A DNA stretch of 59,024 nt, taken from sequence record KY014601.1; one strand, 5' to 3'. The DNA comes from Escherichia phage Utah. Below are positions 1-59,024 of the stretch, in pieces. Both the position numbers and the translations under genes were made by a program. Position 1 is the first letter of the stretch; each line of letters opens with the position of its first letter. Below the pieces are notes generated by a model. The model worked only from the letters and a program-made list of their open reading frames with translations, did not search any database and had not been told where the DNA came from.

Positions 1-224
1 GGTGCGCAGAGCCGCTTTCTCGGAAAATGGGCCGGATCTGCCATAGCCCCGCTTTGCGAAATCAATAACTTAGCCGAAAAACCGAATTTCTCCCGTAGGG
101 AGTCTCCAAATCGCGGTGGTGACGGGGGTGCGGGCGGAACGGCGCTTTAGCCCCGCAATCGGTTGATTGTATTACTGTTTTACCCGGTGGGCGGGTGCTG
201 ACCAAGTCCACGGCAGCAGTATCA

Positions 225-504
225 GGTTACAAGTTACAGACGGGTTACAAGTTTTTCACTTTGTAACCTCTGACTATCTAACTGTTTTTACAACGTTTTT
301 CTTCTATAAAGTTACAAGTTACAAATAAAGTATAGTAATAGTCCAGAAATAGAGAAAACGAGGTAAAAATGTGAATTTTATATAGGGGGGAATTTTACCC
401 GGGCGCTAAACCACTTCGGTTTGTAACCTGAATACCCGGATCGCTGAGAGCCGCGCCGCCACTGGCCTGAACATGGTTACAAACGGCGAAAATGGTATGT
501 AACC
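225..504. repeat. Cluster of at least 8 GGTTACA/TGTAACC half-sites (direct and inverted) around an AT-rich stretch; candidate replication origin or operator array
   Basis: GGTTACAAGTTACA at 225-238 and 311-324; GGGTTACAAG 242-251 facing TTGTAACC 261-268; TTGTAACC 421-428; GGTTACAAA 475-483 facing TGTAACC 498-504; AT-rich 270-400; no convincing ORF in 1-613. Confidence 0.5.
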
Positions 505-545
505 TTTTGCCCGTTTTGGCCGTTTTCTTGCGTTTCAATAACAAA

Positions 546-593
546 TTTGTTATACGTCTTGACCTGAATCCTGCTATAATTTATTTGTTATAA
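546..593 (+). promoter_or_regulatory. Extended -10 promoter (TGCTATAAT, 572-580) for the HTH gene, bracketed by direct TTTGTTATA repeats (546-554, 584-592)
   Basis: TGnTATAAT match 34 nt upstream of ATG 614; RBS AAGAGG 602-607; nearby TTGACC (559-564) is only 10 nt from the -10, so not a canonical -35. Confidence 0.4.
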
Positions 594-613
594 ACAGCAA
601 AAAGAGGTCAAAA

Positions 614-901
614 ATGCAGCACGATGAATGCCGTGAAACGTTGATGGATTTCAAACGACAATTACAGACACATTTGAAGGCGATTTTACGTCGTCAGGGG
701 GTCACACAGAGCGCGCTTGCGACGATGATCGGCGTACACCAGTCAAGATTAAGTTTCATGCTTAACAGTGACGCAGACAGAGTTTCGATCGATAAACTCA
801 TTGAAGCGATAGTGAAACTGGATGGCGTGTTTATGGTGAAAATCGGAGATCAAACAGACATAAATCGAGTGCGGTACAAGGAGTGCGAAGACAACGTTTG
901 A
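614..901 (+). CDS. XRE-family helix-turn-helix transcriptional regulator (Cro/CI-like)
   Basis: 95 aa; HTH segment QSALATMIGVHQSRLSFMLN typical of XRE/HTH_3 regulators; own promoter and terminator. Confidence 0.6.
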   Translation: MQHDECRETLMDFKRQLQTHLKAILRRQGVTQSALATMIGVHQSRLSFMLNSDADRVSIDKLIEAIVKLDGVFMVKIGDQTDINRVRYKECEDNV

Positions 902-912
902 CAGACAAAAAC

Positions 913-937
913 AAGGCCGGATTTCCCGGCCTTTTTA
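913..937. terminator. Bidirectional rho-independent terminator between convergent genes
   Basis: GGCCGG(915-920)-ATTTC-CCGGCC(926-931) followed by TTTTT; reverse strand also has a T-run after the stem. Confidence 0.6.
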
Positions 938-941
938 TCGA

Positions 942-3527
942 CTAAACTTCGTCTTCATCGTCAAACGGGTCTGGCTTTTTGCCGACCAGTTTTTCGACTT
1001 CTGCGTCATGCCGTTTTAACGTAGTCTGCACCCATGACGAGTTAAGTTTCCCCGCGTCATCGAATGCCCCTTTGACCCGCTTACGGACATAAACGCGGCC
1101 AGATTCGCCGCCAAATTTGACCACGCCGCCCGGCTTGAAGCCCAATTCCATAAGCATGTTTTTCAGGCGGTTCGTCTTCGGCATTTCCACGTCTGTCATT
1201 TCGAGGAATGCGTTTTTCAGGGACGGCACGAAGATGACGTCGCGGTGTACGCCCGGCGTCGTTCCGTCACGAAGCATTTGTGCGATTGCGCCTTCCACGC
1301 CATCGTCAGACGCGTCGGCCATGACCGCGAATGCTTCGGTGTCCTGCGGTGCGTGTCCTTTGGCATCGAAATCCTTTCCGATCTCCCAATCGAGGAACCA
1401 CTTTTTGATAGCAGGTGCGTGGTTTTCGATTGCCCGGTACACGTTTTTGAAGAAGCGCGCGCGTTCAGTCTTCGACCCGTAAACCCGCTCCATGTCCAGA
1501 TGATTTTCTGCCTGCGTTGACACCACCAGATAACGACGCTGGTTTTCATCGAGTGGCAATGCGTTGAAGTGGTTGGTGAACATCATTTTGCTGCTGGTGT
1601 TCACTACTTCCTTCGGCTTGCGGCCCTTTGGCTCAATCTGGAAGCGGTCGTTTGTGATGAATTCCTTCTGGCGTTCCACCGCGCTGTACCTATCGCCTTT
1701 GTCGTAGATCTCTTCCACGATTTTCAGGATGTGGCCCTCGGCCCAATCGCTGAAACGGCCATTCATCACGGTGTTTGACACATAGCCCACGTTCGACGCG
1801 CCGAGCATCCGCGACATGATGATGCCGAGCGTCGTTTTACCAGAACCATGCGCACCACGGATCAGAAGCGAGTAGTTGATGCGTTTCGTTGGGTGCTGAA
1901 TAACCCACGCCATCCAGTCCAGAACATAGCGGCGTTCCTTCTCGTTCGGGAAAAGCACGATGAAGAAGTCTTTGATGATCTCCAGCGCCTTTTTGTCGTA
2001 CGGAGAAAGGTCAGTCGCGGCCTCCGGAATGGATTCAGGGTCAAAAGAGTTCAGCCACGTACGCCCACGGTCGTCAATAAAGAATTCCGGCCCGATCACC
2101 CCCTCTTTCGGCTTCCACACAGATTCCGGCATGTCACCGTGCATCGCCGGGTAGTACATCGCGTCCCAAACGATAGGAACCGGGCGGACTACCGACGCAT
2201 AGTGGACAGGCTTGAAGGCTTCTTCCTCAAACACGCATTTTTTCGCAAAAGCGACGTCGAAAGCGCCTTTTGTGATGTAATCGCCCGTGGTTTTTTCGAT
2301 AAAACTGTCATTTGCCTTCGAGAAAACGAAGTTTTTCAGCCACTGCGGAGTCTCTTTTGACCCGTAATCGAAGCCCAAAAGCTCCCTTTTGTCACCAGCA
2401 GTGAGGCGGAAGTTGTTGATCCTGCGGTATGCTTCGGCCGCAATCTGGACGATGGCCTTGCGGGTAAGCCCGAAAATCTGCGCTTTTTTGAATGATTCGG
2501 CCCACGCATTCCAGTCATTCGCCTCGGTACACTCGGCGAAAGCCTCGCGGTACTCGATGGCGCGTTCTTCCTGCTCGGCTTTCTCGATGTCCTGCACTTC
2601 TTTGATGATGGTGCCGAGCGTGATCAGTCGAGTCGAGTTGTGCGCGAAGCCCTTATCCCACTTGTATTCGAAATCACCTTCGTCGAAGTTGTGTGCCTGC
2701 ATGGCCCATTCGCGGGCAATGGCCTTCGCCTCGTCCTGATCGCGGCAGGAAATTTGCAGCGCGGCCAGTACGGTGATGTAGTTCTCGTAATCTTCCGGGT
2801 TCGGGTATTTCAGGACGATGTCGCGCAGTTCATCGTACGTGCCGTCCCACTTTTTGACGTCAGACAGCGCGGCCCAATCGTCATCGTCTGCCGAACCGAT
2901 AGACTCATAACCGTTCATTGGCCGTTTGACCATTGTCCAGCCCAAGTCCTTCGCGTATCGGTCGAATTCGGCGGCGATCTCGCGAGCGGTATCGAGGCTG
3001 ATCTCTTCGAGGTCAAGGTCGGCGGCGTTGTTCAGCGGATTCTCGCCATCAATCCAGTAATAGTCGCGCTTGGTGTCCGGGTGGATACCGTACGCAACGA
3101 ACTGCTGGCCGTCGGCGAGGATTTCAACTGCATGGCGCTGGCCGAAGTCGTCTTCCCACACGCCGGATTTCACTTTGGCGAACGGGTTTTCGGTTCGGTA
3201 CAGGTAGAGTTTCTTCGGCTCCCGGCCGATACGACATGGCGCTGCACCGACGTTCTCGGCGATCCAGTCTGCCATGTGCGCCACGGCGTCTTCATCGTAA
3301 ACGTCGATGTCAACCGCCGGGGTGTATTTGGTCAGAATCCCGATGCCGTTATTCGTATAGCGTTTCGCCCAACGCTGGATCTGCTCCTTATCATTGATTG
3401 TTCGTTCCCAATCTTCACCGATAGGGCGTTTGCCCGCACCCTTCTTATCGGCGTCCGGGGCGTAGATAGGTACGATGGTGTACCCATTCCCCCAAAGCGT
3501 TTCGCCGTACTCTTGCCAGTAGTTCAT
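942..3527 (-). CDS. Bifunctional primase-polymerase (PrimPol N-terminus) fused to D5/SF3-type helicase
   Basis: 861 aa; N-terminal PrimPol-like region (TIVPIYAPDADKKGAGKRPIG..., VDIDVYDED acidic motif); C-terminal Walker A GAHGSGKTT; acidic tail ...DDEDEV. Confidence 0.8.
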   Translation of the reverse strand: MNYWQEYGETLWGNGYTIVPIYAPDADKKGAGKRPIGEDWERTINDKEQIQRWAKRYTNNGIGILTKYTPAVDIDVYDEDAVAHMADWIAENVGAAPCRIGREPKKLYLYRTENPFAKVKSGVWEDDFGQRHAVEILADGQQFVAYGIHPDTKRDYYWIDGENPLNNAADLDLEEISLDTAREIAAEFDRYAKDLGWTMVKRPMNGYESIGSADDDDWAALSDVKKWDGTYDELRDIVLKYPNPEDYENYITVLAALQISCRDQDEAKAIAREWAMQAHNFDEGDFEYKWDKGFAHNSTRLITLGTIIKEVQDIEKAEQEERAIEYREAFAECTEANDWNAWAESFKKAQIFGLTRKAIVQIAAEAYRRINNFRLTAGDKRELLGFDYGSKETPQWLKNFVFSKANDSFIEKTTGDYITKGAFDVAFAKKCVFEEEAFKPVHYASVVRPVPIVWDAMYYPAMHGDMPESVWKPKEGVIGPEFFIDDRGRTWLNSFDPESIPEAATDLSPYDKKALEIIKDFFIVLFPNEKERRYVLDWMAWVIQHPTKRINYSLLIRGAHGSGKTTLGIIMSRMLGASNVGYVSNTVMNGRFSDWAEGHILKIVEEIYDKGDRYSAVERQKEFITNDRFQIEPKGRKPKEVVNTSSKMMFTNHFNALPLDENQRRYLVVSTQAENHLDMERVYGSKTERARFFKNVYRAIENHAPAIKKWFLDWEIGKDFDAKGHAPQDTEAFAVMADASDDGVEGAIAQMLRDGTTPGVHRDVIFVPSLKNAFLEMTDVEMPKTNRLKNMLMELGFKPGGVVKFGGESGRVYVRKRVKGAFDDAGKLNSSWVQTTLKRHDAEVEKLVGKKPDPFDDEDEV

Positions 3528-3805
3528 TCAAGGATTTCCCCTGTTTCGCTGTCCGTTTTGATCCATGAAGGGTTAGTCAGCCAATGCGGACGGATGCCGC
3601 AGTGAGGGACAGCTTTGCAAACTTTTTCGGCCACGCTGCTCGTTACGTTGTTCTGCACGGCCCATAACAATGTCGGGTAACTGATCTTCGCTGCCTTCGC
3701 CAGTTCGGCCATTCTGGCGTTCGGGTCTACCTCCAAAGCCGCTTGCATCATGAGAAATTTGACCCGCATCCGGTCGTCGTTTAAAGCCCAATCTGGAAAT
3801 CGCAT
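3524..3805 (-). CDS. Small putative DNA-binding protein (HTH-like), first gene of leftward primase operon
   Basis: 93 aa; segment MAELAKAAKISYPTLLWAVQNN resembles an HTH; 4-bp overlap with primase-helicase start; promoter immediately upstream. Confidence 0.4.
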   Translation of the reverse strand: MRFPDWALNDDRMRVKFLMMQAALEVDPNARMAELAKAAKISYPTLLWAVQNNVTSSVAEKVCKAVPHCGIRPHWLTNPSWIKTDSETGEILE

Positions 3806-3847
3806 AGTGATGCCCTCGCGTAATGTGCGCGTGTTATAGATTTGCGG

Positions 3848-3876
3848 ATATTATATCCGGGCTTGACATCTGTCAA
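3848..3876 (-). promoter_or_regulatory. Leftward sigma70-like promoter (TTGACA-17-TAATAT) embedded in two palindromes
   Basis: Minus strand: TTGACA (3871-3876), 17-nt spacer, TAATAT (3848-3853); plus-strand palindromes GGATAT-T-ATATCC (3846-3858) and TTGACA-TC-TGTCAA (3863-3876) overlap -10 and -35. Confidence 0.55.
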
Positions 3877-3890
3877 GTTGGCCAGTTATT

Positions 3891-3941
3891 CGGGTACCAA
3901 AGGCGCTTTATGTCCGGAAAACAAAGGGCTTGCGGTACCCG
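3891..3941. promoter_or_regulatory. 8-bp inverted repeat CGGGTACC ... GGTACCCG, candidate operator in divergent control region
   Basis: CGGGTACC at 3891-3898 and GGTACCCG at 3934-3941, 35 bp apart. Confidence 0.3.
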
Positions 3942-3965
3942 AATAAAAAATTTCTAAAAAAGTGT

Positions 3966-3995
3966 TTGACAGTGATTCGGCGTTTGGGCCATACT
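3966..3995 (+). promoter_or_regulatory. Candidate rightward promoter for the long plus-strand operon
   Basis: TTGACA 3966-3971, then weak -10 CATACT about 18 nt downstream; ATG 4048 with GGAG RBS. Confidence 0.3.
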
Positions 3996-4047
3996 TCATC
4001 CCGTCAACACGACACGACCTTTTAAACACTTAACGGAGTAGAAAATT

Positions 4048-53164: not shown

Positions 53165-53409
53165 CCGGATGACGTTTTGAAGTAAGGCGGGTGGCCGGGC
53201 CGCCGGGCTTCAACCGGGTAACTTTTTCAAGTAAGCGCGGAACGTCGCAACGACAACCGGACAGGTTTTTCAAGTAAGCCCGTCGGCCGGGTGAAATTGC
53301 CCCGACGCTGGTGGACAAAACCGTCAGCCGGGTAGGTTTTTGAAGTAAGGACTGGCCGCGTTGTTCAAAATTTTTCAACCGGGTAACTTTTTCAAGTAAG
53401 CCCGTCGGG
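53165..53409. repeat. Five direct iteron-like repeats, consensus CCGG(G/A)NA(A/G)NNTTTT(C/G)AAGTAAG
   Basis: Copies start at 53165, 53214, 53257, 53328, 53379 (spacing 43-71 bp); followed by AT-rich patch and a GC-rich block 53440-53700; no ORF. Confidence 0.6.
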
Positions 53410-58551: not shown

Positions 58552-58575
58552 GCCGCCTATCCGGGCGGCTTTTTT
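58552..58575 (+). terminator. Rho-independent terminator ending the right-arm operon
   Basis: GCCGCC-TATCCG-GGCGGC followed by TTTTTT (58570-58575). Confidence 0.7.
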
Positions 58576-58585
58576 ATTGCCTTTC

Positions 58586-58783
58586 TGATATACGCGGCGT
58601 GCGTTGCGGTGCCGTGTAGCGGGCCTATGGTGTGCCGTGTGCGATGATATACGCGGCGTGCGCATGGCGGCCCGTCCTGATTTCTTCCTTCCTGATATAC
58701 ACGACGTGCATCAAAGCGGCCTTATGTGCGCGCTATGCCGTATGGCGGCCCGCTATGGTGCTGCATGATATACGCGGCGTGCG
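58586..58783. repeat. Four direct repeats of TGATATACGCGGCGTGCG (reverse complement of the rightward promoter core), lacking a good -35
   Basis: Copies at 58586, 58645, 58693 (variant TGATATACACGACGTGCA), 58766; spacing 48-73 bp; copy 4 reverse complement matches 53710-53729 over 20 nt. Confidence 0.75.
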
Positions 58784-59024
58784 TTGGCGTTATGCGGCTG
58801 CATATGGCTATCTATTCCCCTTTCTATGGTATCCCCTGCTATATGGTGTGACGGGGCGTTATTGTATGCCCTTATTTCGACCGCTACGGGGGGTAGACGG
58901 GGCGATCGTGGTGTAAGGTATGACTACCTATTACGATCTATCTTGCGTGGCGTGGCGGGCGGCTGAGGAAGAATTACGGTCATGCTTTCAAAAAGGTACT
59001 TACCCGGCGATCGGTCGGCCCGGG

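Follow-up and report, generated by a model that had tools for sequence, protein, structure and literature searches.

The alpha protein of P4 joins a primase, an SF3 helicase and a C-terminal winged-helix domain that binds repeats (PMC2777425, PMC4234260). In pRN1, the sole non-coding region that is essential comprises the 166 bp downstream of orf904, whose product has a Prim-Pol/SF3/winged-helix architecture and is co-transcribed with a small repressor (PMC4234260, PMC2777425), and the Bordetella phages BIP-1 and BPP-1 show the order Prim-Pol, PriCT_2, SF3 and winged helix (PMC4234260). The origins of pRN1 and BIP-1 have been proposed to be stem-loops of about 100 nt without iterons, and a cognate site for the ORF904 winged helix was not found (PMC2777425, PMC4234260). 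Here we describe positions 225-504 of Escherichia phage Utah (record KY014601.1; the whole stretch of 59,024 bp is called the window), where nine 8-bp iterons surround an AT-rich core downstream of the 3' end of the primase-helicase gene gp2. Judging from sequence comparisons, we propose with a probability of about 70% that this array is the iteron-type replication origin of the phage and that it would be bound by a winged-helix domain predicted at the C-terminus of gp2. The P4 crr region and pRN1 provide precedents for a cis element just downstream of the gene of its own initiator.

The window is a complete Chi-like siphovirus genome (Chivirus, Casjensviridae) in packaged orientation, opening at the left cos end; over bases 1-4000 it shares 95-99.9% identity with Salmonella phage Chi and relatives, and the alignment with Chivirus chi (KM458633) runs from base 1. 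Chi is a classic flagellotropic phage of Salmonella, and the Casjensviridae contain many candidate therapy phages. The literature searched, which lies mostly outside the subscription journals, describes no origin and no such repeats for Chi-like phages or Casjensviridae.

The gp2 protein has Pfam matches above cut-offs to Prim-Pol (PF09250, residues 13-168, E 2.4e-11) and PriCT_2 (PF08707, residues 243-309, E 6.6e-6). Its helicase region (residues 542-681) matches DUF5906 (E 2.4e-18) and, below threshold, a VapE-like P-loop; the same Pfam search gave no D5_N or PF03288 match. The SF3 label that we use for gp2 presumably applies, following the general view of the DUF5906/VapE-like families. A sequence search of gp2 against the PDB returned a single chance-level match.

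As in P4 alpha, a primase, a presumed SF3-type helicase and a putative C-terminal DNA-binding domain are combined in one polypeptide, and the associated repeats are 8-bp words in direct and inverted orientation. The P4 record annotates in crr ten 8-bp 'ori type 1 repeats' of mixed orientation directly after the alpha terminator, and in the related phages Enc34, BSPM4 and PibeRecoleta the array likewise lies directly after the gp2 terminator. Membership of gp2 in the alpha family was considered and rejected because no homology extends beyond the P-loop: hhalign with an alignment of gp2 sequences recovered a 27-residue P-loop match only (probability 7.8%), with the C-terminal domains unmatched, and fold searches with the predicted gp2 winged helix did not recover the P4 domain. 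The two systems also differ in that the gp2 primase is of the archaeo-eukaryotic Prim-Pol type (PF09250) rather than the DnaG/Toprim type, in that P4 has two iteron regions 4.5 kb apart (ori and crr), both needed in cis, whereas the Chi-like phage has one cluster, and in that the word associated with gp2 is RGTTACAA and not the 'ori type 1 repeat' of the P4 record.

The protein itself more closely recalls pRN1 and BPP-1, with which it shares Prim-Pol, PriCT_2, a presumably SF3-type P-loop and a predicted C-terminal winged helix. The pRN1 likeness extends to a small regulator gene that is upstream and co-transcribed (orf56/orf904 in pRN1, gp3/gp2 here) and to a cis element 3' of the replicase gene; the element differs, being an iteron array with an AT-rich core and not a long stem-loop as proposed for pRN1 and BIP-1. 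By analogy, the Chi-like origin would work like that of P4 and be built with a protein of the pRN1/BPP-1 type. In lambdoid phages, with O and ori-lambda, and in theta plasmids, initiator sites lie by an AT-rich region, and the specificity domain and its iterons travel together and differ between relatives. The Chi-like locus similarly has several putative initiator sites beside an AT-rich region and a specificity domain that appears to move together with them. However, ori-lambda lies inside the O gene and O recruits the host DnaB via P, whereas in the Chi-like phages the proposed initiator is itself a primase-helicase and the array is intergenic, by cos. General features of iteron theta origins are found here, namely clustered repeats that flank an AT-rich element by a putative initiator gene, and a word that co-evolves with the initiator domain.

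An iteron array with a conserved layout and a changing word

The hexamer GTTACA occurs 17 times in the window, and nine of these copies fall within 226-503 (binomial P = 2.8e-17 for 9 of 17 in 279 of 59,024 bp). Exact GGTTACA occurs seven times, six of them inside the array (225+, 243+, 262-, 422-, 475+ and 498-), and the three additional sites there are AGTTACA, at 232, 310 and 317. An earlier sequence-only reading had counted at least eight copies of GGTTACA in this region; the cluster is real, but its membership is six GGTTACA and three AGTTACA, or nine RGTTACA sites, six on the plus and three on the minus strand. Alignment of the nine yields the 8-bp consensus RGTTACAA. The window total of GGTTACA is not above chance (7 observed vs 4.8 expected), and therefore the signal lies in the clustering. 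The eight other GTTACA copies are scattered singly, and there is no second RGTTACA cluster anywhere in the genome.

In a genome-wide scan, positions 201-500 ranked first for heptamer clustering and also contained the 200-bp stretch of lowest GC, with GC at 24-34% across 251-400 against 56.4% for the genome, in agreement with the very AT-rich segment described earlier. The same reading had placed inverted pairs at 242-268 and 475-504, which we recovered as 243-250(+)/261-268(-) and 475-482(+)/497-504(-), and had put the primase-helicase gene about 450 bp away; the end of that gene (942) indeed lies 438 bp to the right of the array, with gp1 between them. When folded as a single strand, positions 215-510 form several small hairpins (minimum free energy -39.8 kcal/mol, z -3.2), as expected from the inverted iterons; no pRN1-like stem-loop of about 100 nt was found in that segment, and an Rfam scan of 1-1500 returned nothing relevant.

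We compared the locus in 14 phages from the five genera Chivirus, Redjacvirus, Yonseivirus, Enchivirus and Zhonglingvirus. The layout is kept in all 14, in both positions and orientations: two or three direct sites with an inverted partner, a tandem pair, about 100 bp of AT-rich sequence, a single inverted site and an inverted pair. The word that fills this layout is one of three. GGTTACA is found in Chi, Siskin, phage 37, YSD1, FSL SP-088, Seifer (a Klebsiella phage, Yonseivirus) and Stilesk (a Providencia phage, Redjacvirus), with diverged spacers; GGTAACA in Season12, XAP3, a SAP012-like contig from IMG/VR and PibeRecoleta; and ATTACAA in BSPM4, Enc34 and KPN_N98. Among five GGTTACA-type phages from three genera, 89% of the iteron columns are invariant, compared with 21% of the rest.

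More distant phages carry comparable arrays with other words. Serratia phage Smarc1 has nine CTTAGGG sites within 1-534 from cos, and Burkholderia phage AH2 has ten copies of GGTCCGAA in the last 531 bp. Both arrays occupy the interval from cos to the 3' end of the primase-helicase gene, and neither recurs elsewhere in the roughly 4 kb examined. Simple k-mer counting gave no clear word in PSTCR9, DoubleBarrel or LAh_7.

Three words are found in phages of the single host genus Salmonella (the window, Season12 and BSPM4), and one word is common to phages of Salmonella, Klebsiella and Providencia. A fixed layout with a changing word is the hallmark of an array of sites that co-evolves with a phage-encoded reader, and speaks against a host factor. 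That the sites are bound by a host factor is accordingly the least probable of the alternatives considered: nothing specific favors it, although the ACAA half is common to all three words, and no DnaA box was found in 1-620.

Covariation of the word with the C-terminus of gp2

The small terminase subunit TerS is 100% identical among the window, YSD1, Season12 and BSPM4, which together represent all three words. Likewise, gp3 shows 100% identity in two comparisons that cross word types, of the window (GGTTACA) with Season12 (GGTAACA) and of YSD1 (GGTTACA) with BSPM4 (ATTACAA), which rules out gp3 as the iteron reader. The gp2 proteins behave differently along their length. YSD1 and Season12 gp2 share 98% identity over residues 1-720 and 67% over residues 721-861, and all 28 differences between the gp2 proteins of Stilesk (GGTTACA) and PibeRecoleta (GGTAACA) fall within residues 720-861. 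At the DNA level, each such pair shows a single unbroken divergent cassette, at roughly 200-1300, comprising the array, gp1 (if there is one) and the final ~400 nt of gp2. Its flanks are near-identical (98-100% over bases 1-100, and mostly 90-100% over the rest of gp2). From these alignments, the array and the coding region of the gp2 C-terminus appear to form a cassette of about 1.1 kb that is swapped as a unit between otherwise near-identical phages.

We scanned all aligned columns of an alignment of 13 gp2 sequences for residues that follow the word. The sole column uniform in and unique to the GGTAACA phages, which represent three independent lineages, is V802L, and the sole column uniform in and unique to the ATTACAA phages, also three lineages, is K804C, two residues away. 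The word classes are not single clades. The C-terminal domain of XAP3 is 76% identical to that of YSD1 and 64% to that of Season12, and the BSPM4 domain is 90% identical to that of YSD1, yet has Cys804 in common with Enc34 (70%) and KPN_N98 (62%).

As a blind test, the word was predicted from residues 802 and 804 for proteins known from metagenomes alone. Contig L038 (P0042, AGVLCF), for which ATTACAA was predicted, has downstream nine ATTACA, no GTTACA and no GTAACA, in the usual arrangement. Contig L039 (P0001, GGLLKI), predicted to carry GGTAACA, has GTAACA at 47+, 142-, 194+ and 216- and no GTTACA; its downstream region is incomplete, and the pattern corresponds to the right-hand part of the canonical array, a single site and the 22-bp inverted pair. 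A further contig, L040, is consistent with its prediction but incomplete. L038 and L040 came from a word-indexed protein search (five partial proteins) and L039 from a search of representative proteins, while a scan of IMG/VR with the gp2 alignment gave eight loci, mostly from genomes already known.

The part of gp2 that covaries with the word, residues 713-861, matches no Pfam family and is predicted to fold as a winged helix, about residues 720-861. A hidden Markov model search with this domain against 1.84 billion representative proteins found 39 clusters, in which it is mostly C-terminal in primase-helicases of about 680-900 residues; the small number of clusters indicates a narrow family. 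The putative recognition helix, PKTNRLKNMLMELG, is near-invariant across the three classes. Correspondingly, the right half of the site, T-ACAA, is invariant, and its left half is GGTT, GGTA or TATT. In the predicted fold, residues 802 and 804 lie in the first wing strand and point the same way. In the model that we favor, the PKTNRLKNMLMELG helix would read the invariant half-site T-ACAA, and V802 and K804 in the following beta-strand would read the variable half. The loss of Lys804 alongside the loss of two G's is what we infer a base-contacting residue would show. The sequence-only reading had offered the array as a second origin candidate for an SF3 primase-helicase. Its notion of a binding array is strongly supported by the conserved layout and by the word that covaries with gp2, whereas the N-terminal PrimPol region that it proposed for binding assays gives way to the C-terminal domain, whose sequence covaries with the word.

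A proposed iteron origin and its alternatives

From the observed clustering, conservation, covariation, predicted fold and out-of-sample prediction, we infer binding, melting and initiation as follows. The C-terminal winged helices of gp2 would bind the nine RGTTACAA sites one by one, so that several bound gp2 molecules become concentrated on the circularised genome. The SF3 ATPase would then form rings and melt the AT-rich core, the Prim-Pol domain would lay the first primers, and the family-A polymerase, SSB and second helicase of the phage would take over. An origin is preferred over another kind of gp2 site because the array surrounds the genome's most AT-rich stretch and is the only cluster of its word, the design of iterons with an unwinding element.

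Several observations weigh against an origin read by gp2. The two leftmost iterons (225-239) are the least faithful, being degenerate or hybrid in some phages: these positions read GATACAA or GACACAA in YSD1, Seifer and SP088, the GGTTACA-type phage Stilesk has one GGTAACA there, and Season12 and PibeRecoleta, both of the GGTAACA type, each retain one GTTACA. The odd iterons may be relics of cassette exchange or sites of low specificity. No DnaA box was found in 1-620 with up to one mismatch allowed. GC skew was uninformative; the cumulative skew climbs almost monotonically and tracks gene orientation, and thus cannot locate an origin. The literature searched holds no binding or initiation data for the array. 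Because the array and the gp2 C-terminal region are adjacent, their covariation as blocks could partly be linkage, and the only arguments that reach further are the pattern at single residues and the blind predictions. Finally, both pairs compared genome-wide differ at several further loci. YSD1 and BSPM4 are 93% identical overall, and Stilesk and PibeRecoleta 89%, the latter pair with a number of further divergent patches. Divergence is thus not limited to the cassette, and a test for the only difference is weaker than hoped. In principle, a reader could be encoded elsewhere and differ by only a few substitutions.

It is in this light that another phage DNA-binding protein might be considered as the reader, with the gp2 C-terminal changes hitch-hiking in the cassette. 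The array adjoins the 3' end of gp2 and is exchanged together with it, and the additional differences within the two pairs leave room for such a protein. However, the cassette in Enc34, BSPM4 and PibeRecoleta contains no conserved coding partner besides the gp2 C-terminus. Apart from the cassette, the BSPM4 segments that are unlike both YSD1 and the window (GGTTACA type) are three small genes, gp45, gp66 and gp74. These genes do not follow the word, since each has a 97-100% identical counterpart in phages of the GGTTACA type (SeZq-1, KFS-SE1, PMBT21 and phage 37, for example). In addition, columns 802 and 804 tell the classes apart across varied sequence backgrounds, and the word predicted from them was right in two contigs not seen before. 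We regard a separate reader as quite improbable. Somewhat less improbable, although still unlikely in our estimation, is that gp2 binds the array while initiation takes place elsewhere (by recombination or at a cos nick), the array serving as a crr-like cis enhancer, in autoregulation or termination control, or in tethering or partition. The covariation evidence concerns binding and not initiation; crr, which lies just downstream of alpha, is an iteron region needed in cis and separate from ori; and the array of Enc34 and BSPM4, right after the gp2 terminator, has the position of crr and not of ori. Yet no other RGTTACA cluster is available in the genome as the true origin, the other eight GTTACA being isolated, and a site around the most AT-rich stretch has the build of iterons with an unwinding element.

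The two roles outside replication that the sequence-only reading had raised fare worse. Comparison with the genome termini, which it suggested as a check, does place the array start 225 bp from the left cos end, and the cosB of lambda sits about as far in from its left end, so that the iterons could be imagined as cosB-like TerS sites by the cohesive end. Nevertheless, phages with three different words have a 100% identical TerS, with which the array sites therefore do not covary, and the cos-proximal 1-200 bp, with two matches to the IHF consensus, is conserved where another array has taken the place of this one. A different repeat near the right end, TGATATACGCGGCGTGCG (four copies, 58,575-58,790), follows the Chivirus TerS group and is absent from Redjacvirus. 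A packaging signal is consequently rejected as highly improbable. The chance is slighter still that the array is an operator array of the XRE-type regulator gp1, which we also reject. The right-hand sites do lie 110-190 bp upstream of the gp1 start codon, and gp1 is a helix-turn-helix (HTH) protein. However, Enc34, BSPM4 and PibeRecoleta have a full array without gp1, at least four unrelated gp1 types stand beside the same GGTTACA array, and the separate TTGTTATA palindromes around the gp1 -10 element make likelier operators.

Iteron origins that a primase-helicase recognises through its winged helix are already known as a kind from P4. What would be new is an initiator of the pRN1/BPP-1 type with iterons in an exchangeable cassette and an apparent two-residue code. 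Tentatively, and as a possibility that we put below even odds, the ~1.1-kb segment may be an exchangeable origin-specificity cassette with at least three specificities in the phages of one host and more in distant genera, and with a two-residue wing code in which V802 to L corresponds to T-to-A at site position 4 and K804 to C to the loss of the 5' GG. In that case, relatives infecting the same cell would behave as orthogonal replicons, and the sites would be the first cognate DNA sites for the Prim-Pol/PriCT_2/SF3/winged-helix class of initiators. Assigning the cis element and its putative reader domain down to two residues makes the start of replication testable across the family, and joins P4-type iteron recognition to the pRN1/BPP-1-type Prim-Pol/SF3 initiators, which lack identified cognate sites. 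The suggested orthogonal pairs of origin and initiator could also serve phage engineering.

Map of the locus and other features

The features of the left end are collected in Table 1; the terminase genes lie 10 kb away. Between the array and gp2 is a slot of mosaic composition, a hot spot in which gp1 is variable and dispensable. It is occupied by a 95-aa HTH protein in the window and Season12, a 107-aa HTH protein in Siskin, a protein of 108-110 aa in YSD1 and Seifer, and an unannotated HTH open reading frame (ORF) in Stilesk; it is empty in Enc34, PibeRecoleta and BSPM4, the last with only an annotated 38-aa ORF. Two palindromes of the TTGTTATA type, ATAACAAATTTGTTATA (538-554) and TATAATTTATTTGTTAT (575-591), bracket the -10 element of gp1, and a comparable GATAACTTATATGTTATAAT is present in Season12. 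Read from the sequence, these palindromes are likely autoregulatory operators of gp1. A simple sigma-70 scan called no promoter in 1-600, and the gp1 -10 element was identified by eye.

Table 1. Features at the left end of the Escherichia phage Utah genome (window coordinates)
Feature	Position	Strand	Remarks or basis
Left cohesive end, 12-nt 5' overhang GGTGCGCAGAGC	1..12	+	Same 12 nt annotated as 'cos end 5' overhang' in Siskin, Season12, Seifer and Enc34
GC-rich cos-proximal block, outside the array	13..220		Two IHF-consensus matches (60-72 +, 156-168 -); repeated TAGCCCCGC at 44-52 and 148-156
Iteron 1, GGTTACAA	225..232	+	Position degenerate in YSD1-type phages (GATACAA)
Iteron 2, AGTTACAG	232..239	+	One-base overlap with iteron 1 (7-bp tandem)
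Iteron 3, GGTTACAA, left arm of inverted pair 1	243..250	+	Position kept in 14/14 phages
Iteron 4, GGTTACAA, right arm of inverted pair 1	261..268	-	Starts 18 bp apart from iteron 3
AT-rich core, putative DNA-unwinding element, holding iterons 5 and 6	269..400		71% A+T over 270-400
Iteron 5, AGTTACAA	310..317	+	Sequence and comparison of relatives
Iteron 6, AGTTACAA	317..324	+	7-bp tandem with iteron 5
Iteron 7, GGTTACAA, single site	421..428	-	Sequence and comparison of relatives
GC-rich spacer (~64% GC), iteron 7 to inverted pair 2	429..474		
Iteron 8, GGTTACAA, left arm of inverted pair 2	475..482	+	Sequence and comparison of relatives
Iteron 9, GGTTACAT, right arm of inverted pair 2	497..504	-	Starts 22 bp apart from iteron 8
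gp1 promoter region, extended -10 TGcTATAAT (572-580) between two TTGTTATA-type palindromes	538..591	+	Read from sequence
gp1, 95-aa XRE/HTH_37 protein, between array and gp2	614..901	+	Pfam HTH_37, 1.5e-10
Hairpin terminator common to convergent gp1 and gp2	913..933		Annotated as terminator in Siskin, Season12 and Seifer
gp2, 861-aa primase-helicase	942..3527	-	Prim-Pol 13-168, PriCT_2 243-309, DUF5906/VapE-like P-loop 542-681, C-terminal domain 713-861
gp2 3' end, residues 713-861, predicted winged helix	942..1391	-	Class-discriminating codons V802 (1122-1124) and K804 (1116-1118)
gp3, 93-aa putative regulator, co-transcribed with gp2	3524..3805	-	

The cos-proximal block is probably a terminase/IHF recognition region resembling cosB, as judged from its conservation across Chivirus despite replacement of the array and in step with an identical TerS. 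In phage pairs with differing arrays, bases 101-200 are still 89-93% identical. At the other end of the window, four copies of TGATATACGCGGCGTGCG (one of them degenerate) lie 235-450 bp from the right cohesive end. Clusters of the core GATATAC are also present at the right ends of YSD1 (three copies) and BSPM4 (four copies), whose TerS proteins are identical, and are absent from Redjacvirus right ends. These repeats are candidate terminase recognition sites.

Eight proteins of the window end in a common acidic tail, [DE][DEN][DE]V, mostly ...DDEV or DEDEV: gp2, gp4, the exonuclease gp6, the SSB-like gp7, TerS, a small ORF after the major capsid gene and two right-arm ORFs, with stops at 942(-), 4464(+), 6185(+), 6836(+), 11309(+), 18494(+), 50438(-) and 52669(-). 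By a rough estimate, the figure expected by chance is about 0.01 per genome. Variants of gp1 have similar ends (CEDNV, ENDEV, GENEV and AEDEVV). The tail may be a common docking peptide, by analogy with the acidic tails of T7 gp2.5 and gp4 or of E. coli SSB.

A separate repeat occupies a divergent intergenic region of the right arm, where five same-strand copies of TTTTT[CG]AAGTAAG lie 43-71 bp apart (53170-53405). The AAGTAAG word and its copy pattern are kept whatever the iteron type, with five copies in YSD1 and BSPM4 and four in Stilesk and PibeRecoleta. These repeats may be phage promoters or sites of a conserved regulator, and could be the other origin candidate of the sequence-only reading.

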